Positions 551 through 39,869 of a DNA stretch of 40,314 nt are shown one piece after another (the first letter of the stretch is position 1; each line of letters begins with the position of its first letter). Location of the stretch: the IMG/VR virus record IMGVR_UViG_2541047163_000016, one strand, 5' to 3'. The DNA comes from a virus (Duplodnaviria; Heunggongvirae; Uroviricota; Caudoviricetes). The translations under genes and the position numbers were made by a program. The notes beneath the pieces are model-generated. The model saw nothing but the letters and a program-made list of their open reading frames with translations, did not search any database and was not told where the DNA came from.

Positions 551-640
551 TGTATAGCGCGGCGATTTTTTTGATACCGATTTGCATTTCATTTGATACC
601 GCTGAAAAACGCCGATACGCAACTTATTTGATACTAAATC
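551..640. repeat. Right-end (mom-proximal) cluster of putative transposase-binding repeats
   Basis: TTTGATACC at 570-578 and 592-600, TTTGATACT at 627-635, within ~85 bp of the terminus, like clustered R1-R3 sites of Mu attR. Confidence 0.55.
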
Positions 641-680
641 GGCGCTTTTCTTTTGAGTTTTAGAATGAGTTTTTAAGCGC

Positions 681-1418
681 TCATTCACTCTCTTTCAAAC
701 CAGTTTTAACTGTTTGTGGTTTTGGGTAAGGCTGGACTTTGAATAGCTTTGTGTTGAGGCGTTTTCTGGCCCTCTTGTTCAGAAACCGGATGTAACGAAA
801 CTGTCGGAACTTATGAACACTGGCTCTGTCAATATTAGCCCTCAGATGTTCACCTCGTTGTCCGCCTCGTTTAATGGCATTCCTGCAAATCTCGTGATAC
901 CACTCGCCATCAAGTTCATAGAATATTGATTCATGGCTGCCTACATAATCAAAATTGCTTGCCTGATACACGACACCAAGACAGCCACAACGCTCATCTG
1001 CAAACGACTGAACCCACTGTACCTGCGGATAAAGCTGCCTGATTAGCTTGAGCGCGTAACTGATTGCCCTTGATTCGGAGTTTCTCGGCATACAGTCATG
1101 CAGCCATAGCCGGTTAAGCTCCATATATTCTCGGTTCTGCGTACCCGTTACGACGCGTGCACCACTGTTTGGGTTAAGGGCGTAACCCCATTGCATTACG
1201 CCAACAAGTTCCCGTTCTGAAAATATGCCCAGATGAAGGTAGGAGTTATTTACGAAACGGTGGCTGTAATGTTTATTGACGATGACCAGTCTGGCCAGCC
1301 AGCAACTTATTGTCTCAACCCGCAACTCACGGGAGCCATAACCAACGATATTGTCGTTATAGCGAATAAGTTCAGGCGTGCTGATGATTCGGGATGTGAC
1401 TTGCTTTCTGTTCCCCAC
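681..1418 (-). CDS. mom: Mom-like DNA modification protein (GTG start)
   Basis: 245-aa ORF just inside the right end, overlapping the 3' end of the com-like gene by ~47 nt as in Mu; start codon is GTG (plus-strand CAC at 1416-1418) with AAGGA upstream. Call rests on synteny, not recognised motifs. Confidence 0.55.
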
Positions 1419-1572
1419 GACAGGATTTCCTTGTGTATGTGGGGTGCTCTGTGGCGCTCGGAGATGTGATTTGATTGAGGGTTTTACAGCGCGGACATTT
1501 TACTTCCAGATAACTGAAACTGGCCCGTGCCAGTAGCTTATTGCAGTGTCGGCACCGTATGTTTCGATACAT
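1372..1572 (-). CDS. com: Com-like zinc-finger translational activator of mom
   Basis: ATG at 1572 preceded by AGGAGG; product [14 protein letters not shown]...VKCPRCK has the CxxC...CxxC pattern and spacing recalled for Mu Com (IRCKNCNKLL...IRCPRCK); overlaps the mom start. Confidence 0.75.
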
Positions 1573-1615
1573 GACCGCATAACCTCCTGCTTTGTTGTTG
1601 ATGCCTTTCTCATGC

Positions 1616-1640
1616 AATCGATCGACAAAAACGATCGATT
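1616..1640. promoter_or_regulatory. Inverted repeat AATCGATCG-N7-CGATCGATT carrying two GATC (Dam) sites, upstream of com/mom
   Basis: GATC at 1620-1623 and 1633-1636 inside 9-bp inverted-repeat arms, 45-65 bp upstream of the com start; Mu mom promoter is known to be controlled through Dam sites. Confidence 0.5.
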
Positions 1641-1686
1641 CGATTTGTTTAATTGATACAACAAATAGATTGAAAAGTCATCAACA

Positions 1687-2151
1687 ATGATTCAGGGAGG
1701 TGATTATTTACTTAAAGAAAACGAAGAGTTAGGTGGTGAAAACGATCATAAAATGATCATTTTATTGACTTTTTATACAGTGAAGGTAGGATCACGCGTA
1801 TATGTAGTATGTTTCAAATCAACAGGATACTACATAAAAGTGAAACCCAGCATAGCTGGAACTATGCTGGGTCAATCTGTAAAAACTTGCATCAATGCTT
1901 TACTTCGAGCTCGTGGCGTATCCTATGATATTCCCCGGTCTCCTGTAAAGCAGAGATGCATAAAAAGGAGATCTTTATCATGGATGAAAGAGCCTGTTTG
2001 CCCTGCCTGTAAGACTCCCTTACAGCTCATCTATCGCCGTTCTCGATCTCAAAATGGCAAGACATACAAACCCAAAAATGCTTCCTGTTTCAGGATGCTG
2101 ATATGTCCTGCCTGTTCTCCCAGGAGGGAAAATACACAAAACGTGCATTAA
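1687..2151 (+). CDS. Hypothetical protein with C-terminal C4 zinc ribbon; start uncertain (1687, 1753 or 1984)
   Basis: Only sizeable plus-strand ORF in the cargo region; C-terminus CPACKTPL...(29 aa)...CPAC; AAGGAG at 1965-1970 precedes the in-frame ATG at 1984 (55-aa product); converges on the hairpin at 2161-2180. AT-richer than surrounding phage DNA. Confidence 0.35.
   Translation: MIQGGDYLLKENEELGGENDHKMIILLTFYTVKVGSRVYVVCFKSTGYYIKVKPSIAGTMLGQSVKTCINALLRARGVSYDIPRSPVKQRCIKRRSLSWMKEPVCPACKTPLQLIYRRSRSQNGKTYKPKNASCFRMLICPACSPRRENTQNVH
1846..1871 (-). terminator. Perfect 10-bp stem hairpin followed on the minus strand by a U-rich tract
   Basis: CCCAGCATAG-ctggaa-CTATGCTGGG; minus-strand downstream sequence is TTTCACTTTTAT. 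Lies inside the long version of ORF 1687-2151, which argues for the shorter 1984 start. Confidence 0.35.
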
Positions 2152-2160
2152 CAAACTCAC

Positions 2161-2180
2161 CCGGCAGGGAAACCTGCCGG
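2161..2180. terminator. Hairpin between convergent genes
   Basis: CCGGCAGG-gaaa-CCTGCCGG (8-bp stem, GAAA loop) between the stop of 1687-2151 (+) and the stop of 2190-2435 (-), with moderately U-rich flanks on both strands. Confidence 0.5.
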
Positions 2181-2189
2181 TCGGTATTG

Positions 2190-2435
2190 TTACATCATAG
2201 TACCGTCAGTTCCGGGCTGAACCGGCTCTGGTTGCTCTACGGGTTGAGGATCATTTTCCGTGCTGTTTTCAGCCGGAGAACGGCCAACCATTCGGGCCAG
2301 CACTTCATCAACATATGCGTCGATTTGTGCCTCAAAATCCTTGCGAACCTGCGCCTTCAGCACGCGGTTCACTTCTTCAGAATAAAGTGCCTGTTTGACA
2401 AGCTCTTCAGTAACCGTGCCTTTAATCTCTGGCAT
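2190..2435 (-). CDS. Hypothetical small acidic protein (cargo region)
   Basis: 81-aa ORF with AAAGGAGA ribosome-binding site 6 nt upstream of the ATG; no recognisable domain. Confidence 0.6.
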   Translation of the reverse strand: MPEIKGTVTEELVKQALYSEEVNRVLKAQVRKDFEAQIDAYVDEVLARMVGRSPAENSTENDPQPVEQPEPVQPGTDGTMM

Positions 2436-2470
2436 GAATATTCTCCTTTTGCAGGTATATTGCCCCGTTA

Positions 2471-2653
2471 TCAGAGCGGGGTCGGGTCGTTTGGGGATGA
2501 CGGTGCCTGTGCTGTTTTACTGAGTTTTTCAGCTGCCGCATCATCAATTTTACGGCGAATATAATTTCTGATGACCTTATAACCACCGCTCACCAGATAT
2601 AACGCACTGACCACAGCGCAGAAATAAAGCAGCATTGTATGAACGAATGTCAT
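2471..2653 (-). CDS. Hypothetical small membrane protein (cargo region)
   Basis: 60-aa ORF, AAGGTAAGG upstream of ATG; one hydrophobic N-terminal segment (MLLYFCAVVSALYLVSGG) then a charged tail. Confidence 0.55.
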   Translation of the reverse strand: MTFVHTMLLYFCAVVSALYLVSGGYKVIRNYIRRKIDDAAAEKLSKTAQAPSSPNDPTPL

Positions 2654-2766
2654 ATAACCTTACCTTTGATATTGACTACATAATTCGTTATCGGGTAAAA
2701 ACATCGAAGCGACTGATAACCACTCCTTCGGGAGTATTTTTATTTTCCTTTATGGGTTAGGTAGCT

Positions 2767-2801
2767 CCCGCCAGCCATATCATGACCGGCGGGATTTTTT
2801 T
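2767..2801 (+). terminator. Hairpin plus T7 run, plus-strand orientation, abutting the 3' end of the esterase-like gene
   Basis: CCCGCC...GGCGGG stem followed by TTTTTTT on the plus strand; the T-run overlaps the TAA of the minus-strand gene 2800-4839. Would block antisense transcription entering that gene. Confidence 0.4.
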
Positions 2802-4839
2802 ATTCTGTTACCGCTTTTTTCACTTCCACCACAATGCTGTCAATCAGCACCGGGTAAGTTGCATTTTTTGTGATATCCGTTACGCGGAGTTTGTCCACCG
2901 GGAAAGTTCCTACTGGTGACTGCGTCAGGGTAAACGCGGCACCATCCTGACCATCAATAACCGGAATAACCTGAAGGCTGTTATTTCCTGCAAAACGGAA
3001 GGCCAGCGTATGCCATTCATTATCAAATGCACCAAAGGTTCCCAGTTTCTGGTTATTTGTTGCCACTTTTGCATTGTGGTACATCACATTCAGGTCTTTT
3101 GCGTCTGTCTGGATGTAGAACGATGCCAGCAGATTATTCCCTGCATCCCCTGTCAGGGTGACACCCTGCGGCAGAGAGGAAACCGGCCAGTAAAGCCCCA
3201 TGACATACTGGTTTGCCACCAGGTCGCCAGGTACTTTAAAACGACAACTGATTAAACCACCATTTTTCAGCAGTTCAGCACCAGTACCGGCATCATGATC
3301 CAGATACCAAGATGATTTACCTGTTTCCTTGGTCAGTTTCATTGCCTTACCACCTGTGCCTCCTGCATCACTGATAATTTCAGCTTTACCGCCAGCCGGC
3401 TCCCAGCCCTGGGCTTTCAGATTTCCTTCTGACTCACTGACACGATAAGACAGCAGTGTTGTGGTTACTGCTTCAGTTTCTGAAGGTGACGGCACTGGTG
3501 CTTCAGTTTCAGAAGATGGAACATCGGCTTTTACTGTGGTTCGCCCCGCATGAGTCAGAACTGCCGTGGCCAGACGGTCGGAAATAATCCCACGACGTGC
3601 CCATGAACTGAAATGGCTGGCCCGGTCCGCAGATGTCCAGGTGGCGGCACTGTTACGCCACGTTGAGCCGTAATAACCAATGGATTCAATATCCGGGTCT
3701 TCTGCCGGATTGTTGGTGGGTACATTCGCGTCATTTTCATCTGTCATTAATGGAACGAAATGAATGTTTTTATCTGTTTTGTTTTTGTAGCCGCCATAGA
3801 TTGCCTGGTATGCCGGTTCATTTTTCTGTTTCCAGAAATACGTGGTATCGCCACAAATCCACGGAACGCCAGCAGCACTGCCACCGGTACACTGTTCCGC
3901 CTGTTCAGCCAGGTCTGCGCGGAATTTTTCCACCATCGCCAGAAACAGCGCGGAATGCTCCGTCGGCTTCGCATCAATATCAAACTCGCCCTGCATCCAC
4001 ACCACAGCAAGCAGGCGGTTTTTCGGGTTCTTCGCCAGTGCCGCTTTTGTCCGGCTGATTAAGTCCTTATACAGCGGCTTATCCACACCCCAGCGGGCTG
4101 AGTCCTCTGAAGCACCCGTGCTGTCACTGTACGTGCCGTCAGCACCCGCCGTGAATGCAGAACCACCACGGCAGCAGGGAACCAGCAGAATCCCCGCATC
4201 TGCCGGAATAAACGGCAGCAGTTTTTTGGCAATGTGAAGCCCCTGACCCACGGTGCCATATTGCCCTTTAGCCACATCCGCTTTCGGGTGATTTTTTCCA
4301 CTCATATCCTGCACATCATGCAGACAGTGGTCGGCCAGAATGATGTCGTTATACTGACAGGCTTTACCTCCCGGCGTGACTGTACTGCGACGGGCTAACT
4401 GCATAATACGCGGTTCGGGGCGGTCATATGTCTCCGGCAGTGGCAGACCTTCACCGTAAGCCATACCGTTTGACTGACCAGCAAGAACCACCACGTAATA
4501 CCAGGAAGGGGAGCTGGAAGCAGTTTCATTTCCTGACGGACGGGTATGTGTTTCAGCATTATCCCAGTCTGACGGTTCAGCAGTACCGGCAACATCAGCA
4601 CTTAACGGAATGACCGCACCAATACCCGCTCCGGTAATTTCCACACTCGGATCACCGGATACTGGCCTTACCCACAGGCAATCCCGTGTATTAAAACTGA
4701 TGAGACAGTCAGCAAATGTCATTCCTCCTTTTGTTTCGGCCGGAGGAAAGGGAGCCTCAAGAAATGCCGCTGTACCACCGGAAACTTTAACAGTAAAGTT
4801 TCCGGGCATTGATGATAGTTGAACCCATTTGGACGTCAT
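2800..4839 (-). CDS. Large cargo protein: SASA/SGNH-type carbohydrate O-acetylesterase-like domain with C-terminal beta-sandwich/lectin-like region
   Basis: 679-aa ORF with verified ATG; motif VVLAGQSNGMAYG resembles the GQSN(M) nucleophile motif of sialate O-acetylesterase (SASA) family enzymes; serine/threonine/proline-rich linker (...SETEAPVPSPSETEA...) before a C-terminal ~250-aa domain. Not part of the canonical Mu gene set. Confidence 0.55.
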   Translation of the reverse strand: MTSKWVQLSSMPGNFTVKVSGGTAAFLEAPFPPAETKGGMTFADCLISFNTRDCLWVRPVSGDPSVEITGAGIGAVIPLSADVAGTAEPSDWDNAETHTRPSGNETASSSPSWYYVVVLAGQSNGMAYGEGLPLPETYDRPEPRIMQLARRSTVTPGGKACQYNDIILADHCLHDVQDMSGKNHPKADVAKGQYGTVGQGLHIAKKLLPFIPADAGILLVPCCRGGSAFTAGADGTYSDSTGASEDSARWGVDKPLYKDLISRTKAALAKNPKNRLLAVVWMQGEFDIDAKPTEHSALFLAMVEKFRADLAEQAEQCTGGSAAGVPWICGDTTYFWKQKNEPAYQAIYGGYKNKTDKNIHFVPLMTDENDANVPTNNPAEDPDIESIGYYGSTWRNSAATWTSADRASHFSSWARRGIISDRLATAVLTHAGRTTVKADVPSSETEAPVPSPSETEAVTTTLLSYRVSESEGNLKAQGWEPAGGKAEIISDAGGTGGKAMKLTKETGKSSWYLDHDAGTGAELLKNGGLISCRFKVPGDLVANQYVMGLYWPVSSLPQGVTLTGDAGNNLLASFYIQTDAKDLNVMYHNAKVATNNQKLGTFGAFDNEWHTLAFRFAGNNSLQVIPVIDGQDGAAFTLTQSPVGTFPVDKLRVTDITKNATYPVLIDSIVVEVKKAVTE

Positions 4840-4938
4840 AATAATCAGCCTGTTCCTGAATAAACTGAATTATCATATCCACAGACCGATAAACGCCATT
4901 TTGCGTTAATTCAGTAAAGGCCCAACAAAGGGAGCGTC

Positions 4939-5499
4939 TTATTTTTCCGAAACGCTCGCAGGATAATAACGATAAAGGGTTGAAAGGCCGATATCAAAAA
5001 TAAGTGCCACCTGTCTTCGACTGACACCCCCGGCCAGTAAACGCCCGACCTGCTCGTATTGTTCCTGCGTGAGACGACGGGGTCTGCCGCCGGTTCGTCC
5101 CCTTTCACGGGCAGCTGCAAGACCAGCCCGTGTCCGTTCGACAATTAATTCACGCTCCATTTCTGCCAGCGCACCCATTATGTGAAAAAAGAAGCGCCCC
5201 ATGGGGGTTGACGTATCAATGTTGTCAGTAAGACTACGAAAATTTATCCCCTGTTGCTGTAATTCATCTGTCAGCGCAACAAGGTGGCGCATACTGCGCC
5301 CCAGCCTGTCCAGTTTCCAGACCATCAGTGTGTCACCGGGTTTTAGTTTCTTCAGTGCCCGCTTCAGTCCCGGCCGCTGTGTCGTTTTACCACTCATTTT
5401 ATCTTCAAAAATCTGCTCACATCCTGCACATTCCAGCGCATTTCTTTGTAAACCTGTGTTCTGGTCATTTGTTGATACGCGTATATAGCCAATCAGCAT
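4939..5499 (-). CDS. gin: Gin/Hin/Pin/Cin-family serine DNA invertase
   Basis: MLIGYIRVSTNDQNT...VWKLDRLGRS...FFHIMGALAEMERELI... closely matches the recalled Mu Gin sequence; lies next to a gix-like site and the tail-fibre module. Confidence 0.92.
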   Translation of the reverse strand: MLIGYIRVSTNDQNTGLQRNALECAGCEQIFEDKMSGKTTQRPGLKRALKKLKPGDTLMVWKLDRLGRSMRHLVALTDELQQQGINFRSLTDNIDTSTPMGRFFFHIMGALAEMERELIVERTRAGLAAARERGRTGGRPRRLTQEQYEQVGRLLAGGVSRRQVALIFDIGLSTLYRYYPASVSEK

Positions 5500-5553
5500 G
5501 TATTTACCTTCCTTAAAAAGAGGTGGAAAGGCCTTTTAAAGCAGATATACGGC

Positions 5554-5579
5554 ATCCCTGAAACCTCGGTTTACGGGAT
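5554..5579. other. gix-like recombination site (gin-proximal)
   Basis: ATCCCTGAAACC-TC-GGTTTACGGGAT: 12+2+12 bp pseudo-palindrome resembling the Mu gix site TTATCCAAAACC-TC-GGTTTACAGGAA; lies in frame at the 5' edge of the silent tail-fibre cassette. Confidence 0.6.
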
Positions 5580-5924
5580 ACTGTAAACAGGGCCGCGAAT
5601 GCCCTGCCATCGAACGGAGCGGCTGTTGCAGCGAATAAACTCGCCACTCCAAGAAATATTAATGGTGTCCCATTTGACGGAACGCAGGATATAAATATTA
5701 CATCGGGGATGACGCAGTCTGTGGCTGACTCACGTTATGTTCAAAGCATTCGAAGAGGTTCAAGGTCAACGATTGGAATGCAATATAATATTTTTGAGGT
5801 TCCTGACGGATGCGTACTTACAGGGCTTGATGTCGCTGGTGATGGTAATGCAACGGTAACCGCATATTATCGACCTGTTCAGTTTCTGATAGATGGTTCG
5901 TGGAAAACAGCTTCCAGCGCATAA
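5562..5924 (+). other. Promoterless alternative tail-fibre C-terminal cassette (S'v-like)
   Basis: In-frame from the stop at 5559-5561: GLRDTVNRAANALPS...ATPRNINGVPFDGTQDINITSGMTQSVADSRYVQ... parallels residues 178-240 of the expressed tail fibre and then diverges; ends ...YYRPVQFLIDGSWKTASSA. Confidence 0.6.
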
Positions 5925-6003
5925 AAGTGCAGTAGTTCAAAAAACAGATTATCTGAATAAATATATGATGATTTTGTCTTTTCAACAAAAACAAGGTGAA
6001 ATA

Positions 6004-6525
6004 ATGGAGCTTATTAACGTAAAACGATATTACCCGGAACACAAACCCTATGGTGAGGATGTTCAGTATTTCCAGAGTGAGGACGGAAGGGATTTTTATG
6101 AATCTATCCCGCTTTTCACAAAGAAATACAAACTCTGTATTTCGCCTGTAACGGGTATTATCTGCTCTGTTGCTGAAGATGTCTCTGCTTTATATCCGGC
6201 AGGTTTTACTGTTGTTGAAGTGGACGAACTGCCGGAAGGTGTGAATATTGACGGTAACTGGCAGTTTTCTGATGGCCTGATATCAAAGGTGCCGGTAAAC
6301 TGGAAGACGGTTGCTGAAAAGCGCCGCTCATCGCTGCTCCAGGAAGCCAACGAAACTGTGGATGACTGGAAAACGGAATTAAAACTGGACATGATTAGCG
6401 ATGAAAATAAATTACAGCTGACGCGCTGGATGGCGTATATCCGACAGCTTAAAGAAATGCACTTTAATGATATTGCCAGTGAGGGGCATTACCAGGCGAT
6501 TCCCTGGCCGGAAAAACCGGAATAA
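6004..6525 (+). CDS. Tail fibre assembly protein (U'-like), belonging to the silent cassette
   Basis: 173-aa product from the ATG at 6004 (AAGGTGA upstream); size, position after a fibre C-terminus and ...HYQAIPWPEKPE ending fit tail-fibre assembly (Tfa/U) proteins. Alternative start at 5965. Confidence 0.65.
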   Translation: MELINVKRYYPEHKPYGEDVQYFQSEDGRDFYESIPLFTKKYKLCISPVTGIICSVAEDVSALYPAGFTVVEVDELPEGVNIDGNWQFSDGLISKVPVNWKTVAEKRRSSLLQEANETVDDWKTELKLDMISDENKLQLTRWMAYIRQLKEMHFNDIASEGHYQAIPWPEKPE

Positions 6526-6530
6526 TTCAG

Positions 6531-6555
6531 AGGGTGCATTCAGCACCCTTTTCTG
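6531..6555. terminator. Bidirectional hairpin terminator between convergent tail fibre and U' genes
   Basis: AGGGTGC-attca-GCACCCT followed by TTTCTG on plus and preceded by an A-rich tract; sits between stop 6523-6525 (+) and stop 6560-6562 (-). Confidence 0.6.
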
Positions 6556-6559
6556 TGGT

Positions 6560-7471
6560 TTACACTGAACTTACCGTTCTCCAGGCATTATTAATATAAA
6601 TCTGAACCGGGCGATAATAGACCCCACCGATATTGTCCGCAGACCGGGAGCCGGTTTCCTGCACGTTAATTCCGGAAAGCATACAACCGGAAGGTGCGCT
6701 GTAATTCCATGACATTTCATTGCCTCCGGGTGAATGATAGCTCTGTGCTCCAAGCTGAACATTCTGTACATACCGGCCATCTGCGGTTGACTGCGTCATT
6801 CCTGACGTGATGTTGATATCCAGCGTTCCGTCAAAAGGAACACCATTAATATTTCTTGGGGTGGCGAGTCTGTTTGCTGCCACGGCGGTTCCACCCGATG
6901 GCAGGGCATCAGCAGCCTTATTTACCGTTTCCCGTAAACCAACGTTATCGATAAAAGCGCCTTTATCCGGAATGTCTGCGCCGTTCTGCTCCCTGCGCAG
7001 GTAACGGTTATCACCTTCGCTTTTGCTGTAAACATCCAGATTATTACGGGCGGTTCCCGCATTCTCCAGGTCGGCAAGGTTCTGATCCTTCGCCAGAGCA
7101 TTAACGTCACCGGGACCAAGACTGTTTTTTGTGGCAAGCGCCCCAAGACCAAGATAACCACGGGCAAGACGCTGGGCTTCCGCACCGGCATCAGCAATTT
7201 CTTTCAGGTTGTTTTTCCGGGAAAAGGCATTCGCAGCGATAATGGCTTTAATGGACAGCGTAAGCTGGTTTAACTGCGCCTTATCCGGCTGAATACTGGC
7301 TTCAGCCAGAATATTCAGCAGTTCGGCCTGGAGAATATTCAGCCAGTCCTGACCAATCCAGCTGATACCTTTTTGTCCGTCACCTTCGGTAAACCAGGTG
7401 GTGGTATTACTCTGCGCCGGTGCCAGCGCAGGCATATTCGCCACGCCGGAATTATTATCAACATGAAACAT
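6560..7471 (-). CDS. Tail fibre protein (S-like), currently expressed variant
   Basis: ATG at 7471 overlaps the upstream stop (TAATG) and is preceded by GAGGAG; C-terminal ~127 aa parallels the silent cassette; ends ...GGVYYRPVQIYINNAWRTVSSV. The ORF-track start at 7525 lies inside the upstream gene. Confidence 0.75.
   Translation of the reverse strand: MFHVDNNSGVANMPALAPAQSNTTTWFTEGDGQKGISWIGQDWLNILQAELLNILAEASIQPDKAQLNQLTLSIKAIIAANAFSRKNNLKEIADAGAEAQRLARGYLGLGALATKNSLGPGDVNALAKDQNLADLENAGTARNNLDVYSKSEGDNRYLRREQNGADIPDKGAFIDNVGLRETVNKAADALPSGGTAVAANRLATPRNINGVPFDGTLDINITSGMTQSTADGRYVQNVQLGAQSYHSPGGNEMSWNYSAPSGCMLSGINVQETGSRSADNIGGVYYRPVQIYINNAWRTVSSV
6929..6954. other. gix-like recombination site inside the tail fibre gene
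   Basis: Read on the minus strand: TTATCGATAACG-TT-GGTTTACGGGAA (10/12 and 11/12 matches to the Mu gix half-sites); encodes FIDNVGLRE at tail-fibre residues 173-181, exactly where homology with the silent cassette begins. Confidence 0.5.
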
Positions 7472-28801: not shown

Positions 28802-28802
28802 T

Positions 28803-28840: not shown

Positions 28841-28872
28841 GGTGAAGGAGAGGCGGCAGGCTTTGCGGAATA

Positions 28873-29298: not shown

Positions 29299-29367
29299 AT
29301 CAGCCTCCGGTTCTCGCGTTCCCGGTAAGTTTAAAATAAAAATCCCGCGTTGTGGCGGGATTTGGAG

Positions 29368-30685: not shown

Positions 30686-30697
30686 TCACCTGCCTGT

Positions 30698-31922: not shown

Positions 31923-31925
31923 GCA

Positions 31926-32441: not shown

Positions 32442-32974
32442 TACGCCACCTCCGCAGATATCCCGGCAGGCGCGGCCGTCCGGTCAACAATCAGGTAACG
32501 CAGAACGCGCGAGGTGATATTCCAGCCGCTTAAACCGCAGATAATGACACCCAGGCGTATGTCGATATACGCCATCACAAACTGGGGCACGCCTTCTTTC
32601 ATGGCCTGCTCATCAACTTCAGCCACCACATAAACGGTTTCACAGGTCAGAACGCCCTGAGCAAATTCCCACGCCATTGACGGAATATCATGCCCCTCAA
32701 TCCACGGCAGGGATTTTCTGAAGCTGCACCACTGAACATCATCAGCCGCACCTTCCTGGCTGCATTTGCGACGAACCGGCTGCACCGGGCGGGGACGCGG
32801 AATATCATAAAAACCGTTACATTCCGTCAGCACCCCGGCATCGACCGCATCACGCAGAAAATAAACCATCGAGGATGGCGGCATATTCATTTTTTCAGCC
32901 AGAATGCCGCAGGTCAGACGCCCGTAAATACTCAGCCAGTTTTTAACCCCTTCAAGCACTTTTGCACCAATCAT
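32441..32974 (-). CDS. Hypothetical early protein
   Basis: 177-aa ORF with verified ATG. Confidence 0.5.
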   Translation of the reverse strand: MIGAKVLEGVKNWLSIYGRLTCGILAEKMNMPPSSMVYFLRDAVDAGVLTECNGFYDIPRPRPVQPVRRKCSQEGAADDVQWCSFRKSLPWIEGHDIPSMAWEFAQGVLTCETVYVVAEVDEQAMKEGVPQFVMAYIDIRLGVIICGLSGWNITSRVLRYLIVDRTAAPAGISAEVA

Positions 32975-32977
32975 GAA

Positions 32978-33520
32978 TTATTCCTCCGTCAGCGCCACAT
33001 ATTCAGAATGTTTAATCTCCTGGCATTCTTCAGGAATACCCCCTTTTATTTCCCTGCCATAAGCGCCTACTTTAAACACCACGCACAGGGCATCACGGGA
33101 GAGCGACGGGGTCCACCAGGAGTCCATGTTAAACATGGAGGGGATTCTCATTACCCCCAGCTTTTCACAGAGCCAGACAAGGAAATCAGGACGCTTTCTT
33201 AACTCGCGTTCAGCGGCTTCAATCATTGCGGCAATCGCCGGTCCTTCAGGGCATGACTCATCAGGTCTGGCAATAAAGCACGGTCCGTCCCCGATAAAAG
33301 CCACATCATCGCGCTTACGCCAGCCCGCAGGCAGAGCACCAGAAAAATAAAACTCACTGATTACGTCCATGGCAAACGGCTTTAAGCGCAATCCGGCAGC
33401 GCCTGTATTTTTCAGTAATGCCCGAAGAATACTGTTGCGTAGCGGTAAAACAGTCTGTTGATATTTGGTGAAATATTTATTTGTCTGCACACGGTCTAAT
33501 TTGAAATAAAAATATGCCAT
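32978..33520 (-). CDS. Hypothetical early protein
   Basis: 180-aa ORF, AAGGAACAGG before the ATG. Confidence 0.5.
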   Translation of the reverse strand: MAYFYFKLDRVQTNKYFTKYQQTVLPLRNSILRALLKNTGAAGLRLKPFAMDVISEFYFSGALPAGWRKRDDVAFIGDGPCFIARPDESCPEGPAIAAMIEAAERELRKRPDFLVWLCEKLGVMRIPSMFNMDSWWTPSLSRDALCVVFKVGAYGREIKGGIPEECQEIKHSEYVALTEE

Positions 33521-33617
33521 ATATCCTGTTCCTTATTTTCAGTTTACAGGCGCAGGCAGTCCCCTGACGCGAGCGCCATACTTAAAACGATGTGATATTT
33601 AAAGATTTAATGCGGTG

Positions 33618-34148
33618 TTATTTATTCAGTCCGGCGTCCTGTTCAAAAGGCTCGACATAAAAACTTTCAGCGCCTTTATTCACCTTAATACCGGCAATGC
33701 CTTTCACTGCATCCGGCTCCGCTAGGACCGCTTCCTTGTTCACTTCCTCTTTCGTGCGGATGAATCGCTCAAGCCCCATACGGCGCAGCATTTCAATCAC
33801 ACCTTCCACATCACGGCTGACGCTGCATGATGGATTTCCCAGCCGCCATGACACTGTTCCGGTGGTCAGATTGGCTGTTTTGGTTTTGCCGCCGTTCGTC
33901 AGCTCATCGCGGTTGGTTTTGCACCAGTCCTGAATCCCCTTAAAAAGCACTTTGATTTCTTTTTTAAGGTTTTCAATCTGCGGCGTATAACGGGCGGTGA
34001 TTTCTGCCACTTCATCATTCATCGCCGTTTCCAGCCGTAGCGCCTCTCGCTGAATATCGCCCAGGGTACGGATATCGCGGCTGACTTCTTCGCGGGTCTG
34101 CGGTGCAGCCTCGGCTGCGGCCTTTAATTTTGTAACACGTTTAGCCAT
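33618..34148 (-). CDS. gam: Gam-like host-nuclease inhibitor (DNA end-binding, Ku-like)
   Basis: ...LGDIQREALRLETAMNDEVAEIT...CKTNRDELTNGGKTKTANLTTGTVSWR...LERFIRTKEEVNKEAVLAEP... closely parallels the recalled Mu Gam sequence; AAGGA before the ATG. Confidence 0.9.
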   Translation of the reverse strand: MAKRVTKLKAAAEAAPQTREEVSRDIRTLGDIQREALRLETAMNDEVAEITARYTPQIENLKKEIKVLFKGIQDWCKTNRDELTNGGKTKTANLTTGTVSWRLGNPSCSVSRDVEGVIEMLRRMGLERFIRTKEEVNKEAVLAEPDAVKGIAGIKVNKGAESFYVEPFEQDAGLNK

Positions 34149-34159
34149 TTTGTTTTTCC

Positions 34160-34453
34160 TTATTGCAGTGTGCCTGATGCTTTATGCACGCGGTGGCGTT
34201 TAATGATGGCATCCGCCCCAAAAGCCTGTACAGATGCCTGAAATTCCGCTGAGAGAAACTGAATAATTTCAGGACTGTGATACTGGAGAATACTTGCATA
34301 AACGCCACAGAGTGACGTCGGCCTGTTATTCGTATCACGTTCTGTTTTTACATCCACACCAATCTTTTCATGCACTTCAACACAGTCATTGCCTGCCGGT
34401 TTTTCGTCATGCGAAACATGCTTAAATTCAAAAATAACGCGTACTTTGCTCAT
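34160..34453 (-). CDS. Small early protein, paralogue 2 of a tandem pair
   Basis: ATG at 34453; N-terminus MSKVRVIFEFKHVSHDE parallels the upstream gene's MSKVVRIIFEYKEHVIHKN. Confidence 0.5.
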   Translation of the reverse strand: MSKVRVIFEFKHVSHDEKPAGNDCVEVHEKIGVDVKTERDTNNRPTSLCGVYASILQYHSPEIIQFLSAEFQASVQAFGADAIIKRHRVHKASGTLQ

Positions 34454-34457
34454 GGAA

Positions 34458-34730
34458 TTACCCCTGCTGATTAAATTCATTACCTTTAATAACCCCGGAA
34501 CGCATGCTCATATCTTTCATGAGCGCACTGGCTTTCATTGCCACAAGTTCAGCAAAGTCTCTGCTTTCCGCGAGCATAACCACCCCAAAAATCATGGCGG
34601 GTCCATCACCTTTCTGCTTTATCCCGGTTGAACGTATGTCCAGACTTACCCCCATGCGCACTGTTCCATCAGCGTTTTTATGGATAACGTGCTCCTTGTA
34701 TTCGAAAATAATGCGTACGACTTTACTCAT
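34458..34730 (-). CDS. Small early protein, paralogue 1 of a tandem pair
   Basis: 90-aa ORF with verified ATG; shares N-terminal motif with gene 34160-34453. Confidence 0.5.
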   Translation of the reverse strand: MSKVVRIIFEYKEHVIHKNADGTVRMGVSLDIRSTGIKQKGDGPAMIFGVVMLAESRDFAELVAMKASALMKDMSMRSGVIKGNEFNQQG

Positions 34731-35008
34731 CCTCTGGTCCTCGTTCTGTTTGGATAACTGACCCGGCGTCTGACCTCACGGCAGAACCGAATCATGGCAT
34801 TAAAGGCTTCTTCCTCCGTCACCGCTTCCGGTATCCCCGGAACCAGTAACTGCTCCTGTTCATCACGTCCATGACGCGCCATAACCTCAATCACATGCCG
34901 TACCGTGGCAGGCTTTCCGGCAACTATCGGCAATGCACCTTCCGGCAGGACGTAACCAAACTCAATAAGACCACTCGACCACGCCCATGCAATGAGATTT
35001 TTTTTCAC
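34727..35008 (-). CDS. Hypothetical early protein
   Basis: 93-aa ORF, GTG start preceded by GGAGGTG. Confidence 0.45.
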   Translation of the reverse strand: MKKNLIAWAWSSGLIEFGYVLPEGALPIVAGKPATVRHVIEVMARHGRDEQEQLLVPGIPEAVTEEEAFNAMIRFCREVRRRVSYPNRTRTRG

Positions 35009-35009
35009 C

Positions 35010-35264
35010 TCACACCTCCCAGTAAACCGTGCAGCCGCTGATGCGGGTGGCCTTCACACGGCGGCGCAGGCCGTTGGTCTGTATGGTGATTTCAATTTCA
35101 CCGGTTCCCTGCACGTTGCCTACCGGCGGCGTGGTTTTCAGTGCAAAACGTTGCGGATAGCGCTTACTGCGTTCCAGTACCGCACCGGCAAGTTCGGTCA
35201 GACGGCGCGCGCTGTTCAGGGAGTCGAATAAATTCATTTTGTTACCGCAGGATTGCATATTCAT
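35010..35264 (-). CDS. Hypothetical early protein
   Basis: ATG at 35264 preceded by GAGGTG; the track start at 35276 has no ribosome-binding site. Confidence 0.45.
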   Translation of the reverse strand: MNMQSCGNKMNLFDSLNSARRLTELAGAVLERSKRYPQRFALKTTPPVGNVQGTGEIEITIQTNGLRRRVKATRISGCTVYWEV

Positions 35265-35276
35265 ATAACACCTCAT

Positions 35277-35504
35277 TTAGCTGACTTGTTTCGCACCAAC
35301 AGAACGGCATATTCCGCTGTAAACGTCTGTCGCACCTTCGCGATCAAGTCCGGCAGATATCACCATTCGTGTGCGGTCATTAAATTCAAAAAGTAAATCG
35401 CCACATTCTTTATTTTCGGCCAGTGAAATCACCTTCACGTTATCGAAATTAACCAGGTAAAAGCGTCCGTAAATATCAGGAATATTAAATACCGCCATAA
35501 TCAC
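35277..35504 (-). CDS. Small early protein immediately downstream of B (position of Mu kil)
   Basis: 75-aa ORF; size and position match Mu kil, but no sequence-based support. Confidence 0.45.
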   Translation of the reverse strand: MIMAVFNIPDIYGRFYLVNFDNVKVISLAENKECGDLLFEFNDRTRMVISAGLDREGATDVYSGICRSVGAKQVS

Positions 35505-36433
35505 ACCTGTGAGAGTAATTCAGGGTTGGTATAAACCTCTTTAAAGGCCGCATTAATATGTTTTTCTGTCAGCGCCGCGCCTTCACCGCTGGCGGTGAGC
35601 CACGCCTGGTTAAGCGTATGTGTCAGAACGCGTAACGCTCCCGGCTTTTCAGCGATAGCCTGCATGACGGCCAGCTCGGCCTCACCACTGATCCCCCACG
35701 CCCTGGCAATGGCCAGCACATCCGCCTTTTTGGCCTTGCGAAGTTGTTTTGTACGGGCAAGACGGCTGAACAGGCGCGATAAATCATCAAAGGCGCGGCG
35801 TCCACCTTTAAACAATCCGCGCGGGTTACCAATAAGCACCATCCCGATCCCCGTGGCGTCCTGAATTGCCCGGAGTTGCTCCAGACCGTCAATACCCAGA
35901 TGATCCGCCTCATCCACAATCACCAGTCCACGCGTTCCCATCAGGCGACGGCGGATGGCGCGGGATAATGCCCCTTTGTTCGCGCGGGTGTAATCAATCC
36001 CCAGCGCATCGGCCAGCTCCAGCAGACACTCCGTGACGCTGGAGTGCGCGGGTGACAGGGTGATCATCCAGGTGTTTGGTTGCTCCTGGCAGTAATTACG
36101 GGCAGTGGCCGTTTTACCCACACCCGGTACGCCCACAATAACGTTAATACAGCCCATCAGACGAACCGCCTGAAACAGTGCGCGCAGCTCCTGGACTGTC
36201 TGCGTTTCCACAAACTGCGGCGGTTCCGGCAGTGCGCTTTGTTTATTCCAGTTTTCATACCAGGAACGCAGGGAAGCAGCCACAGCGGCGTTATCGCCTT
36301 TATATTTCCCCTTGCGGAAAGCCGATAATGTGCCGTCGGAAATTCCCGCCTCTCTGGCGATGGCATACTGCGTCAGTACGCCGCCATCAATAAGTTCATC
36401 AATGGTCTTGATTACATCGTTAATATCAGTCAT
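35501..36433 (-). CDS. B: Transposition ATPase / target DNA activator B (MuB-like)
   Basis: ...EPPQFVETQTV...VGVPGVGKTATARNY...TWMITLSPAHSSVTECLLELA...LVIVDEADHLG...AEKPGALRVLTHTL closely parallels the recalled MuB sequence including the Walker A motif; ATG preceded by GAGAGG. Confidence 0.9.
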   Translation of the reverse strand: MTDINDVIKTIDELIDGGVLTQYAIAREAGISDGTLSAFRKGKYKGDNAAVAASLRSWYENWNKQSALPEPPQFVETQTVQELRALFQAVRLMGCINVIVGVPGVGKTATARNYCQEQPNTWMITLSPAHSSVTECLLELADALGIDYTRANKGALSRAIRRRLMGTRGLVIVDEADHLGIDGLEQLRAIQDATGIGMVLIGNPRGLFKGGRRAFDDLSRLFSRLARTKQLRKAKKADVLAIARAWGISGEAELAVMQAIAEKPGALRVLTHTLNQAWLTASGEGAALTEKHINAAFKEVYTNPELLSQV

Positions 36434-36504
36434 ATTATTAACCTCTCATTTGATACCTTGTTTAATCAAATAACCTGAGTCGCCGCTCGGGTTATTTTTT
36501 TATT

Positions 36505-38595
36505 TCAGGCCAGCGGGTCATTTTCTTTTAATTTCGCTTCCAGCAACTGCAATCCCCGCTGGAAATTACGCTCGTATTCTTCATCAGGTTCATCGTCAGC
36601 GACCGGTTGCTGAACGGTCACCGTATTACCCACAGGGCGGTATATGTTTTCCAGCCAGGGCTCCTGCGGCTTGTGCTCCAGCACGTTGACAACCTCATCC
36701 TCGGCATCACGGATTTTTTCCTCTGCGCGTTTACGCATGCCTTTAAGGCGTTGCTGCTGTTTGTAGTATTCCGCGCTGACCGGGAAGGCTTCGCGTTTAT
36801 TGCCGTCCCATACCGCCTCGCAAATCACGCTGCCATCCAGGCGACGTACGGTAATTCGTTCGGCATCATGAATGTCATAGCTGATAAGCACCTTACGGCC
36901 ATGCTCGTCACGCAGCTCGGGCGCGTAGTAAATATTATTCAGCCAGCGTATTTCACAGCGTCTTACAGGGCGTTCCACCATCGGCCGGAACATATCCCGC
37001 AGCTCAACATCGGACAGCCATTCAATTTCCGTGTCCTCTTCCGCCAGGCGTTTTTTTCTGAACTCCGCCGGGCTGTAATGCTTGCCGTTCGGCTTCACCG
37101 GTAATTCATCGTGCGGCCGGTTGTTGTACCACTCAACACCGTCACGAATGGCATCAATCAGTTCAGACCAGGACGGTAAATCACGCATCGCTGACTGCTG
37201 CCGGGCGTTCAGCCGTTTGCCCTGTTGCAGGGCAGTAAATGCCGAGCGTAAATCGCGGTTGGTTTTGCGTAACGTCTCGCGATCTGCACCTTTCCCGAAA
37301 TAGGTGCGGTATTTACGGGCTATGCGCATCGGTAATGTGCGGTTAAGCCGTTCGATAATGCCTCGTCCCTGCGGATTACCGGCAATCCCGGTCGGGTGAT
37401 TAATCCCCAGTCGCGGCAGTATCCCCACAACCTCCTTATCCAGGATGTCGGCGGTTTCCCCGGAGCCGTTATCCGAGTAATACAGAAACGGTTTGCCGTG
37501 ATGGCGAATGCCGTGCTGTATGGCACCGGCTACGGCGAAAACATTTTCAGCCAGGTCAAGGCTCCAGCCCACCACAAAGCGCGTGCCACCGTCGATAACA
37601 AAGGTCACTTCCGGTGCAAATGGCCGACCGTGAACCGGGTGTGCGCATTTCAGCTTCATGCCGTGACCGTCACCAATCCAGACATAATTCACCGGCATTC
37701 TGGACCAGTCGCGGCGCGTGAATCCCTCAAGCTGGCGGTATTCACTGCCGGTCACCCGGCCTTTTTGTTTCACCACTTCCGGCAGTTTCTTCATTGCGCG
37801 GCGAATGGTGTCATAAGACGGCATGATATCGAGCATATAAGGCTCATCAGCGTGCCGGTGCTGCCATTCAGCGACAAAATCCTCGTAAGCCTCGGTCATT
37901 GGTCGGCCGTTTGACTGGCGATACTGCGCCAGAAATTCGGGCAGCCAGTTAATATCTTCGGCTTTTATTTCCTGGCGCTTACCCGGTGCCAGTAAAAGCA
38001 GGCGTTCAGCGGCGTTCTGCGCCTTGTTAAAGGCCGCAATCCAGCGTTTCAGCGTGATTTCACTTAACGCGCGGCTGTTTCCCTTTTTGGCGTTCGCCGT
38101 CTCAACCATTGCCACAATGCGCTCGTCCAGCTGCGAACGTGCCAGGTTGTCAACGATAAACCGGATAGCCTTCGCACAGCTGAAACCAGGTTGTTGCGCG
38201 ACTTTCAGAACTTCGCTGACGATCGCGATTCGTGCATCAGCCACCTGGCGCTGGTTTTCAGTCAGGGCATTAAGGCGTTCGACCATCAGTTGTGGTGATC
38301 CGCGATATGCCTCCACCGCATCAACCACGGCAGGCGAGCGTCTGGCCTTTGTCACCACTGGAGCCGGTGATTCATCGACTTTTTGAGTCATCAGTTGCAG
38401 GGCGTAGCGTTCACGTAATGCCTGCTGCGTCACTTCAGGTAAACAGTCGATGCTGTATTCAGTTGCTTTAGAGCCTGAGCGACGACGGGAACAACAGCTT
38501 TTCCCTTGTACGTAACGTTGTAATGCCTGGCGAATACCTTTTGTTGTAGCAGGCATTCCGGGCGCGCCAATCAGTTCTTTTGCAATGACATACAT
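36505..38595 (-). CDS. A: DDE transposase A (MuA-like)
   Basis: 696-aa ORF directly after ner with GAGAAAGG before the ATG; central region with WIGDGHG... and DNG motifs resembles the MuA catalytic core. Confidence 0.9.
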   Translation of the reverse strand: MYVIAKELIGAPGMPATTKGIRQALQRYVQGKSCCSRRRSGSKATEYSIDCLPEVTQQALRERYALQLMTQKVDESPAPVVTKARRSPAVVDAVEAYRGSPQLMVERLNALTENQRQVADARIAIVSEVLKVAQQPGFSCAKAIRFIVDNLARSQLDERIVAMVETANAKKGNSRALSEITLKRWIAAFNKAQNAAERLLLLAPGKRQEIKAEDINWLPEFLAQYRQSNGRPMTEAYEDFVAEWQHRHADEPYMLDIMPSYDTIRRAMKKLPEVVKQKGRVTGSEYRQLEGFTRRDWSRMPVNYVWIGDGHGMKLKCAHPVHGRPFAPEVTFVIDGGTRFVVGWSLDLAENVFAVAGAIQHGIRHHGKPFLYYSDNGSGETADILDKEVVGILPRLGINHPTGIAGNPQGRGIIERLNRTLPMRIARKYRTYFGKGADRETLRKTNRDLRSAFTALQQGKRLNARQQSAMRDLPSWSELIDAIRDGVEWYNNRPHDELPVKPNGKHYSPAEFRKKRLAEEDTEIEWLSDVELRDMFRPMVERPVRRCEIRWLNNIYYAPELRDEHGRKVLISYDIHDAERITVRRLDGSVICEAVWDGNKREAFPVSAEYYKQQQRLKGMRKRAEEKIRDAEDEVVNVLEHKPQEPWLENIYRPVGNTVTVQQPVADDEPDEEYERNFQRGLQLLEAKLKENDPLA

Positions 38596-38596
38596 A

Positions 38597-38845
38597 TCAT
38601 GACGCCTTTCTCATATAGCTCTTAACCTGGTATCGACTGGGCCAGATTTCTTCAGGCGATACCCCAAGAGCATCAGCAATTATTTGCTGATACGGTCGGC
38701 AAGGAGTACGTAATACGCTTTTCAGCGAATCCCTGCTGTAACCAGCCTTTAAAGATAAAGAGCGCAGTGATAAGCCAGCCATGTGTAAGCGCGCCTTGAT
38801 GATTTCAGGCGGCCAATCGTGATCTGAAACTTCTCTTCTACTCAT
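38597..38845 (-). CDS. ner: Ner-like DNA-binding protein
   Basis: ...LSLRSLSLKAGYSRDSLKSVL...QQIIADALGVSPEEIWPSRYQ parallels the recalled Mu Ner/Nlp family sequence; first gene of the early operon, divergent from the repressor. Confidence 0.85.
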   Translation of the reverse strand: MSRREVSDHDWPPEIIKARLHMAGLSLRSLSLKAGYSRDSLKSVLRTPCRPYQQIIADALGVSPEEIWPSRYQVKSYMRKAS

Positions 38846-39012
38846 ACTTCCTCTATTCTAAAAAGTTACCCGCGCGGATATTCGTGCGGATATCTGTACG
38901 GGTAAATAATAGAACAAACAAAAGAACCAAATCAAGGTATTTTGTTCTTTTTATTCTTTGCGGTGTTTTTGTTATTAATATCAATAAGATAAATACAAAG
39001 GAACCTGAGAGC
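38846..39012. promoter_or_regulatory. Divergent early control region (operators and promoters for repressor and ner-A-B)
   Basis: 167-bp gap between divergent starts; direct repeats GCGGATAT at 38874-38881 and 38886-38893; 7-bp inverted repeat TTACCCG (38866-38872) / CGGGTAA (38899-38905); AT-rich tract 38940-38990. Confidence 0.5.
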
Positions 39013-39597
39013 ATGAACATGAAAAACAGTTCTTTTCTCGACGAAGGAAAAGAACCAGTGATCGAACGGATTTTTCGTCTTGCAGAGCGTTACAAATCGA
39101 GAAGTGAGGCGGCTAGAGCATGGGGAATAAACGTTCAGACATTGCAGAACTACTACAAAAGGAGAAACAATCAGCCGCCACCACAACCAAGAAAGCACCA
39201 TCTCCAGAACATTGCAGAAAGAGAACATGTATCTATGGAGTGGCTAGTCAATGGTTATGGTGATGAGCCAAGCATGAAAAAAGAACCAATTGAACAAACA
39301 AAAAGAACAAAAAAACAAAGAATTGATGATAGTGATTCCATCATCATGAGGGCGTGGGACTCGCTAACTTCATCTGAACAAGAGATTTTGTCCAACTTAT
39401 TGATCAGAAAAGGGGCCGAACTACTAACCGTTTTGCTTGATACAGATATTCAAAAACTGCACTCATTGAGCGGAGTCAAAAGAGCACTAGCATTGAGTCT
39501 ACAAGAGTTACCCGATGATACTGTAAGAGAGATTTATGAAGAATGTGAAGCTAAGGTTAATCATTTAAATGTAACCCAGAAAAAGGCTGGTGCGTAA
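39013..39597 (+). CDS. Repressor (Mu c functional analogue) with N-terminal helix-turn-helix
   Basis: ATG at 39013 with AAAGGA 9 nt upstream (track start 38884 is GTG inside the operator region); N-terminal ...RSEAARAWGINVQTLQNYYKRR looks like an HTH; divergent from ner, at the left end as Mu c is. Confidence 0.7.
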   Translation: MNMKNSSFLDEGKEPVIERIFRLAERYKSRSEAARAWGINVQTLQNYYKRRNNQPPPQPRKHHLQNIAEREHVSMEWLVNGYGDEPSMKKEPIEQTKRTKKQRIDDSDSIIMRAWDSLTSSEQEILSNLLIRKGAELLTVLLDTDIQKLHSLSGVKRALALSLQELPDDTVREIYEECEAKVNHLNVTQKKAGA

Positions 39598-39694
39598 GGG
39601 AGTGGTGCAATTTTTGTGCTGTAGTACACTCCTTTAAAGACAATCTGGAGAAAAACGTTTTAAGCCTTTTTAAAGCCATTTTAAGCGTCAATCC

Positions 39695-39869
39695 GTAGTA
39701 TCAAAAGTTTTGCCGATTTTAGAATAAACGATTAATTATTGCACAATCGGTATCAAATAGACTTTAAGCGCTCATCCAGACATCACCTGTTTTATTTCAG
39801 TATCTTACAGGTGATTTCACCTCCTTTCACTAAAACCCTCGTTGGTATCAAATGATTCACCTGGTTACA
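39695..39869. repeat. Left-end (repressor-proximal) cluster of putative transposase-binding repeats
   Basis: GGTATCAAA at 39844-39852 and 39749-39757, GTATCAAAA at 39698-39706 (reverse complement of the right-end TTTGATACC), spread over ~170 bp like L1-L3 of Mu attL. Confidence 0.5.

Follow-up and report, generated by a model that had tools for sequence, protein, structure and literature searches.

The 40,314-nucleotide stretch of DNA analysed here (the window; virus record IMGVR_UViG_2541047163_000016) raises the question of how a Mu-like phage came to lie between J and lom, two tail genes of lambdoid phages, and whether it is a prophage inserted into another prophage. Judging by its flanks, its ends and its relatives, an intact phage of the Sp18 family very probably reached this place by transposition, the target being the spacer between J and lom in a lambdoid prophage of an O157:H7-like E. 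coli.

The J-lom site and its hairpin

Both flanks are lambdoid, as an earlier note on this DNA had claimed. On the left, the 3' end of a J-like gene matches the Pfam profile Ig_GpJ_C, the C-terminal receptor-binding domain of J, at positions 3-299 (E 4e-13) and 302-517 (E 6e-17). Against phage PhiR5_1, in which J is intact, it has gained 2 nt within the (GA)n tract at ~259-269, and the frame terminates at 300-302; this frameshift is shared by the empty-site O157:H7 strain 3384, whose gpJ is labelled 'frameshifted' in RefSeq. On the right, the lom-like gene begins, as had been described, with an ATG 39 bp past position 39870, and matches Ail_Lom at 39909-40202 (E 2e-47, profile positions 1-92 of 199). 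A 1-bp deletion at 40184, seen against L001 and PhiR5_1, closes its frame at 40203-40205, while re-adding a G at 40184 recovers the Lom frame. J and lom are likewise adjacent in lambda, with a spacer of 61 bp (~60 bp in the earlier note) compared to 67 bp here. The lambda spacer also has an analogous GC-rich hairpin followed by TTTTATT, but the hairpin sequence is different, and the lambda genes are distant from those of the window at the nucleotide level (~80% over short patches).

When the insert and one repeat copy are taken out, the joined flanks (1-552 plus 39874-40314) match as a single unbroken piece in 3253 of 5426 complete E. coli genomes, which bears out the expectation that they would be found rejoined in related strains. 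The best match, with 99.6% identity, is strain 3384, where the annotation reads gpJ followed by Ail/Lom and the empty site sits in a full tail module comprising tape measure, phage tail protein, L, C40 peptidase, tail assembly protein, J, lom and tail fibres. The removal of the element and one AATG copy gives exactly the spacer sequence common among related genomes, its 67 bp being equal to that of the uninterrupted relatives L001 and PhiR5_1, the latter a functional phage with the same spacer. Aligned to the empty site, the left and right halves overlap by AAATG.

The reconstructed spacer holds a terminator-like hairpin, GGGCGCCA-GAAA-TGGCGCCT and then T6, in agreement with the intrinsic terminator that had been proposed for the joined flanks. 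An independent pattern scan of the empty site (L001 6539-6558) returned eight pairs, six of them G-C, with a loop of 4 followed by TTTTTATT, and the joined flanks fold at -18.2 kcal/mol. The hairpin comes just past the stop codon; its stem is rich in G-C, its loop is short and a T tract follows it on the transcribed strand, so that it would be an intrinsic (Rho-independent) terminator. The pattern scan found no terminator-like site at either junction of the interrupted window, and the division of a predicted terminator hairpin by the insertion is supported. The earlier note had placed the insertion in the loop; the hairpin is indeed split, but the AATG duplication spans the boundary between the loop and the 3' stem, not lying wholly inside the loop. 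No preference for hairpin targets was seen, as the rebuilt target sites of the other insertions did not consistently exceed their shuffled versions in degree of structure (z -2.7 to +0.4).

Ends of the element and the 4-bp duplication

On the minus strand, the element reads TGTAACC...GCGCTATA, with TGTA... termini at both ends and the mom end finishing in ...CTATA (Table 1). Of the ends given previously, 551 and 39869, the right one is retained, while the left one is moved to 553 by nine other simple insertions: the TG at 551-552 belongs to the target, since all other copies of the element end in ...GCGCTATA whatever follows. Comparing the boundaries of these nine insertions and the window, an exact 4-bp repeat is present at all ten, at ten different sites (creC, sorM, dcuC and Stx phages among them), and the fifth duplicated base agrees in just five of them. 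Two readings with a 5-bp duplication were rejected. Ends at 551 and 39869 of the TG...CA type give unlike pentamers, AGAAA and AATGG; a repeat of AAATG would require the element to start with GTAACC and fails at 5 of the 10 insertions, whereas the 4-bp repeat fits all ten.

A search for the motif TTTGATAC yielded eight matches against 0.84 expected, with three per end in inverted orientation, presumed to be transposase-binding sites. At the repressor end, one repeat is terminal and two lie ~110-165 bp inward, a spacing like that of Mu L1 versus L2/L3. The element resembles bacteriophage Mu in having three presumed binding repeats at either end, spaced much as in Mu, and in starting with TG at the transposase end. 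In contrast, the stagger of Mu is 5 bp (PMC3325207) compared to 4 bp here, and the mom end of the element has ...TA-3' instead of CA; the 5-bp duplication and the 5'-TG...CA-3' termini that serve as the criterion for Muvirus are not those of this element. Tentatively, the Sp18 family may transpose with a 4-bp stagger and a ...TA-3' mom-end terminus, possibly an undescribed natural variant of the Mu-type transpososome geometry. No literature describing or explaining a 4-bp duplication in Sp18-type phages was found in the searchable library; the depositors of GenBank LC727881 and LC727895 annotate 4-bp repeats for Mu-like phages. If the 4-bp stagger is formally undescribed, a natural transpososome variant would be available in many sequenced strains.

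Table 1. Positions of the features in the window, their strand and the basis of each assignment.
Feature	Positions	Strand	Basis and details
Lambdoid tail-tip gene J, 3' end	1-520	+	Stop codon 518-520; Pfam Ig_GpJ_C in both frames
Predicted terminator, left half	539-552	+	5' stem GGGCGCCA 539-546, loop GAAA 547-550, TG the first two 3'-stem bases; scan at L001, joined-flank fold
Target-site duplication AATG, left copy	549-552	.	Junction comparison, 10 simple insertions
Sp18-type Mu-like transposable prophage, 39,317 bp	553-39869	-	mom end 553, repressor/transposase end 39869; near-identical copies elsewhere
mom-end terminal region	553-640	+	Three TTTGATAC repeats at 570, 592, 627; presumed transposase-binding sites, spaced closely like Mu R1-R3
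mom and com	681-1572	-	mom 681-1418, com 1372-1572; Pfam Mom E 4e-77; RefSeq annotation of identical proteins
Cargo absent from Mu, four genes	1687-4839	.	Pfam
Cargo: hypothetical protein	1687-2151	+	
Cargo: DUF826	2190-2435	-	Pfam
Cargo: DUF1378	2471-2653	-	Pfam
Cargo: SASA-esterase/DUF6645 protein, 679 aa	2800-4839	-	Pfam
Gin-like serine invertase and tail-fibre region	4939-7471	.	
Gin-like serine invertase	4939-5499	-	Pfam Resolvase and HTH_7
S'v fragment	5721-5924	+	
Tail-fibre assembly protein	6004-6525	+	Caudo_TAP
Tail fibre S	6560-7471	-	
Late genes	7471-28801	-	RefSeq annotation of protein-identical copies
Mor activator, semi-essential early genes, Gam	28873-35498	-	Mor 28873-29298, Gam 33618-34148; RefSeq, protein-identical copies
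MuB-like AAA+ ATPase	35501-36433	-	Pfam Phage-MuB_C E 2.5e-25, AAA_22; adjoins transposase
MuA-like DDE transposase	36505-38595	-	Pfam Mu-transpos_C E 1.5e-17, HTH_Tnp_Mu_1 E 7e-6; phrog_310 E 1e-212
Ner-like HTH protein	38597-38845	-	Pfam HTH_35
Repressor (c-like)	39013-39597	+	phrog_3037 transcriptional repressor E 3e-59; placed as in Mu; reads outward to lom
Repressor-end terminal region	39698-39869	-	Three TTTGATAC repeats, 39845-39852, 39750-39757, 39698-39705
Target-site duplication AATG, right copy	39870-39873	.	Junction comparison
Predicted terminator, right half	39870-39887	+	Loop AA, 3' stem TGGCGCCT, T tract; scan and fold
lom	39909-40314	+	Pfam Ail_Lom; remainder past the deletion reads on in another frame to the window edge

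Gene content and relatives

The description of the insert as a complete Mu-like prophage is supported by its predicted genes, which include those for MuA-like and MuB-like proteins, repressor, Ner, Gam, Mor, a Mu-type head, a contractile tail, Gin and Com/Mom. In comparison with RefSeq, all 59 CDSs are intact, 58 with proteins identical to those of the E. coli strain 113 copy and one differing by a 2-aa repeat unit. The gene order is that of Mu, namely repressor, ner, A, B, gam, mor, lysis, head, contractile tail, an invertible tail-fibre segment that includes gin, and com/mom. According to the RefSeq annotation, the late genes comprise baseplate, DNA circularization protein, tape measure, tube and sheath; a head set with gpT, protease, G, F, DUF935 portal and packaging; and lysozyme and Rz/Rz1-like lysis genes. 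The invertase and tail-fibre region contains inverted repeats at 5562-5743 and 6765-6946.

Besides its likeness to Mu, the element has an extra cassette with a SASA-domain esterase, DUF1378 and DUF826, and its cargo region has 78-81% nucleotide identity to Stx/lambdoid phage genes, some annotated as yjhS 9-O-acetyl-N-acetylneuraminic acid deacetylase. PADLOC gave no match to defence systems among the cargo genes or the repressor. The transposase has diverged so far from MuA that phmmer gave no match to the MuA chains in the PDB at E <= 1e-3, a search that returned retroviral integrase cores only; its core aligns to these DDE cores, DNG and ER motifs included. No tRNA was found within the window by ARAGORN. 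RefSeq marks 'tRNA-OTHER' in some Sp18 variants.

The element is 99.98% identical to the copy in strain 113 and 99.94% to that in O157:H7 F1273, both at other loci, and other strains carry near-identical copies at many loci unrelated to one another; the Sp18-type family is present in 248 of the 5426 complete E. coli genomes, in up to four places each. Across the ten simple insertions, the copies lie at many unrelated sites with a short duplication and no integrase or att site, and Mu-like prophages are known to occupy strain-specific loci (PMC7430833). Sakai Sp18, which is predicted to be intact and whose DNA is packaged but not circularised (PMC2669165), has 98.4% nucleotide identity over 37,977 of the 39,317 bp, with the same termini and gene order. 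Sp18 also has a 4-bp duplication, TAAA in sorM, at an insertion site unlike that of the window. Its immunity region is different, having a 176-aa regulatory protein compared to the 194-aa repressor here, as are ~0.65 kb of the early genes.

Alternatives, mechanism and similar insertions

The exact junction of the window was not found in the 5426 complete E. coli genomes, 50,697 phage records, GTDB representatives, IMG/VR or JGI metagenomes and is therefore without independent confirmation. This uniqueness would fit an assembly artefact, in which a real Mu-like prophage was joined to the wrong repeat copy, or a Mu copy and J-lom form a chimera, with no nested insertion here. J-lom regions are multi-copy in the complete E. 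coli genomes (median 2 places, up to 14 per genome), so that an assembler could attach a Mu copy to the wrong lambdoid one, and the lom frameshift at 40184, private to the window, could be a sequencing error. Nevertheless, a chimera would not yield an exact 4-bp duplication, the length typical of the family, precisely at the family termini, nor would taking the element out of a chimera give back a known spacer to the base, and a mix-up among lambdoid copies would still place the element in a J-lom spacer; an artefact is thus very unlikely. Phages of the Mu type take up host sequence at both ends by headful packaging, and Mu virions carry only ~50-150 bp of host DNA at the repressor end. The flanks could then be packaged host DNA and the window the molecule of a phage particle, not a resident nested prophage, an account that agrees with the packaging of Sp18 DNA (PMC2669165) but is extremely improbable, as at least 445 bp lie beyond the repressor end here, AATG on both sides indicates that both flanks come from one insertion site, and the donor cell would still have carried the nested prophage.

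The term prophage within prophage, as proposed in the earlier note, leans on related genomes, because the window has only ~0.5 kb of lambdoid DNA per side (552 bp on the left and 445 bp on the right), and it is from these relatives that we infer a whole prophage as the host. The lambdoid context could be a mere J-lom fragment, with the term overstated: in the window, J has a frameshift and lom is cut short, and many O157 lambdoid prophages are defective (PMC2669165). However, the closest empty-site genome has the same sequence in a full tail module with T3SS effector cargo downstream, which supports the nesting and makes a cryptic remnant rather unlikely.

With transposition into a resident lambdoid prophage as the preferred reading, the predicted transposase would have bound the end repeats and joined both 3' ends to target phosphates 4 bp apart, at the boundary between the loop and the 3' stem of the hairpin after J, and subsequent gap repair would have produced the AATG duplication. 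The hairpin halves are now 39 kb apart, therefore the predicted terminator downstream of J is presumably destroyed, and transcripts leaving J would enter the element at its mom end, in antisense direction to the Mu genes. On the other side, the Mu repressor gene reads outward, and lom now follows 312 bp downstream of it; all that lies between them is an orphan T tract. The host prophage, with J and lom both frameshifted, seems to have been already defective before the insertion analysed here, as the J frameshift is also seen in empty-site strains; thus, the insertion probably cost the cell nothing.

A Mu-like phage landing in a lambdoid prophage in this manner would split a terminator and then travel with its host prophage or further disable it, and transposable phages would thereby enlarge the prophage mosaic of Shiga-toxin-producing E. 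coli (STEC). Prophage callers and comparative pipelines call for caution with such loci, as they would call a single 90-kb 'phage' or give the lambdoid element the wrong size. Nested insertion itself is already recorded, the consistent 4-bp (not 5-bp) duplication being the sole modestly interesting by-product, and the present case is an ordinary example of documented behaviour. Sp18-like phages inserted in prophages and Stx phages were described in 2023 in CC119 STEC, in which six of ten Mu-like phages were located in mobile elements (PMC10132054). In LC727881.1 and LC727895.1, Mu-like phages of the same family and termini are annotated inside Stx-converting lambdoid phages; these copies have other insertion points and are more diverged (78-98% by segment), and the window junctions are absent from both records. 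The copy in O157:H7 strain Show KS 470-1 (NZ_CP038309.1) is 100% identical over window positions 35800-39870. It, too, is nested in a lambdoid tail region of this kind and points the same way with respect to lom, but it interrupts J itself, of which 804 bp are left before lom, and represents a separate insertion event.

Flanking genes and the empty site

The left flank encodes, in two frames, the Ig_GpJ_C domain, the C-terminal receptor-binding domain of the tail-tip protein J, and an Ail/Lom gene begins in the right flank, bearing out an earlier note that had read the flanks as J-like and lom-like. When 1-552 was joined to 39874-40314 and searched in 5426 complete E. coli genomes, the flanks were found as a single uninterrupted place in 3253 of them. 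The closest empty site, in O157:H7 strain 3384 (99.6% identity), carries gpJ and then an Ail/Lom protein in RefSeq; a complete lambdoid tail module (tape measure, phage tail protein, L, C40 peptidase and tail assembly protein) precedes it, and tail fibres and effector genes, nleG7 among them, come after it. When aligned to this site, the left and right parts of the window share an AAATG overlap. Without the element, the J-lom spacer measures 67 bp, identical in length in the functional phage PhiR5_1, while in lambda, where the two genes had been said to be adjacent and about 60 bp apart, it measures 61 bp and contains a comparable GC hairpin with TTTTATT after it.

Regarding the terminator-like hairpin proposed for the joined flanks, a pattern scan agrees, finding a single such site at the empty site, GGGCGCCA-GAAA-TGGCGCCT and then TTTTTATT, and the joined sequence has a folding energy of -18.2 kcal/mol; the scan detected none at either window junction. 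The hairpin is thus interrupted, as claimed, but not wholly within its loop, as the staggered cuts take in two bases at the end of the loop and two at the start of the 3' stem. The nested insertion itself is confirmed.

The lambdoid host prophage was already impaired before the insertion, because the J frameshift is also present in the empty-site strain 3384, whose gpJ is flagged as frameshifted. Relative to PhiR5_1, this change in the (GA)n tract shortens the receptor-binding domain by its final ~75 residues. The deletion in lom, which none of the compared relatives has, leaves a Lom of 98 aa; it occurs in the window alone and may be either genuine or a sequencing error. That the host is a whole prophage is suggested by its relatives, beyond the reach of the window, and it is quite improbable that it is merely a remnant.

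Features of the window and their supporting evidence
Feature	Coordinates	Evidence or content
Ig_GpJ_C, two frames	3-299; 302-517	Pfam, E 4e-13; E 6e-17
J (GA)n tract	259-269	+2 nt, frameshift
Target duplication AATG	549-552; 39870-39873
Element	553-39869	39,317 bp
Cargo cassette	1687-4839	679-aa SASA-esterase/DUF6645, DUF1378, DUF826, 154-aa hypothetical protein
Inverted repeats	5562-5743; 6765-6946	182 nt, 78% complementary
CGGCTT array	18423-18505	perfect, x13.8, within HI1506-related head-region gene
MuA-like transposase	36505-38595	Mu-transpos_C, HTH_Tnp_Mu_1, phrog_310
MuB-like ATPase		Phage-MuB_C
Ner-like protein		HTH_35
Repressor		phrog_3037
Gin-like invertase		Resolvase + HTH_7
Mom		Pfam Mom
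Ail/Lom gene	from 39909	domain search, E 2e-47
lom deletion	40184	1 bp

Element ends, target duplication and mode of insertion

The window contains 8 occurrences of the motif TTTGATAC, where 0.84 would be expected, with three plus-strand copies at most 85 bp from the mom end and three minus-strand copies at most 172 bp from the repressor end, a layout resembling that of the R1-R3 and L1/L2-L3 sites of Mu. The window was compared with nine other simple insertions of the Sp18-family element (L003-L006, L008-L010, L012 and L013), located in creC, an ABC-transporter gene, a permease gene, dcuC, Sakai sorM and two Stx phages, and downstream of folA and folK. All copies read TGTAACC...GCGCTATA, independently of the adjoining sequence, and an exact 4-bp repeat flanks 10 of 10, the fifth base matching in 5. 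Since termini and repeats are shared, the left boundary, previously placed at 551 from TG...CA ends, is moved to 553, and the right end is kept. The depositors of LC727881.1 and LC727895.1, two Stx phages with Mu-like inserts in GenBank, also annotate 4-bp repeats. Mu, in contrast, has a 5-bp stagger (PMC3325207), and its terminus reads ...CA, compared to ...CTATA-3' at the mom end of the Sp18 family. A literature search retrieved no paper discussing the 4-bp duplication or the ...TA terminus of these phages, and their consistency is the sole point that may merit a note.

With boundary and duplication corrected, the interpretation of transposition is supported: the element is equipped with genes for transposition and with end repeats, its target duplication has the length usual in the family, in-silico excision regenerates the common J-lom spacer exactly, to the base, and near-identical copies occupy unrelated loci in other strains. 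It is conceivable that misassembly joined the element to a J-lom region, as these regions occur in several copies, at as many as 14 places in a genome, and the window's junction is absent from every other record in the collections searched; however, this leaves unexplained an exact family-typical duplication at exact family termini. The flanks are unlikely to be host DNA on a packaged virion molecule, considering the flank of at least 445 bp at the repressor end and the duplication common to both sides.

Transposition would have proceeded by Mu-type strand transfer, with the J-lom hairpin as the target, and the gaps would then have been repaired. J would have lost its terminator, so that late lambdoid transcription would run on into the mom end, in antisense to the genes of the Mu-like element. 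The Mu repressor gene, which reads outward, would now end 312 bp ahead of lom, and an orphan T tract alone would separate the two.

Separately, the element at L007 (NZ_AP027159.1, strain 2313; ends ~1161 and 39931) has no target duplication (CGTG versus TATT) and lies between hyaE and torS. This suggests that DNA was deleted or rearranged either at a Mu copy or between copies.

Relatives, gene content and cargo

By sequence comparison, the insert belongs with Sakai Sp18 among the Mu-like prophages, with 98.4% identity to Sp18 across 37,977 bp, 99.94% to the O157:H7 F1273 copy (in an ABC-transporter gene) and 99.98% to the copy in strain 113, which lies at a different locus and from which it differs by one synonymous SNP and one CGGCTT unit. 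All 59 RefSeq CDSs of the latter are open in the window (58 protein-identical, one with a two-residue difference), and together with the transposase, MuB, Mom and repressor domains this upholds the earlier view of a complete transposable prophage. Gam, Mor, Com and the lysis, Mu-type head, contractile tail and baseplate genes are taken from the annotation of identical copies.

Sp18 is described as Mu-like, apparently intact, packaged and non-circularising (PMC2669165), its relatives occupying strain-specific loci (PMC7430833). In CC119 STEC, 6 of 10 Sp18-like phages lie within mobile elements, and several Stx phages carry them (PMC10132054). Nested insertion is therefore already known, and what the window adds is a new site, both the element and its behaviour being on record. 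A nested insertion that arose independently, some 0.8 kb away from that of the window, is found in L002 (NZ_CP038309.1, O157:H7 Show KS 470-1): the element, 100% identical across window 35800-39870 and in the same orientation, lies inside J (locus ~4070), so that 804 bp of J remain ahead of lom.

The transposase gene is present in 248 of the 5426 genomes, at up to 4 places in each. Its phmmer matches in the PDB are retroviral integrase catalytic cores only, with no MuA chain at E <= 1e-3, and among the matches listed it is at most 45% identical to transposases of phages not of Sp18 type (Mannheimia and Pseudomonas phages).

The cargo cassette, between gin and com/mom, is without counterpart in Mu. 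Its SASA-esterase gene has 78-81% nucleotide identity to genes in about 300 Stx/lambdoid phage records, of which some bear the annotation yjhS 9-O-acetyl-N-acetylneuraminic acid deacetylase, and this resemblance suggests that Mu-like and lambdoid phages have exchanged genes.

An ARAGORN search of the whole window found no tRNA; some Sp18 variants (L005, ~21406-21486; L007; L008) have an 81-nt RefSeq 'tRNA-OTHER' between head-morphogenesis genes. The CGGCTT copy number differs among otherwise near-identical prophages, giving gene lengths of 387, 399, 417 and 423 bp. The inverted repeats enclose a tail-fibre assembly gene and an S'v fragment beside the Gin-like invertase, presumably an invertible host-range segment, whose orientation is annotated identically in all copies examined.
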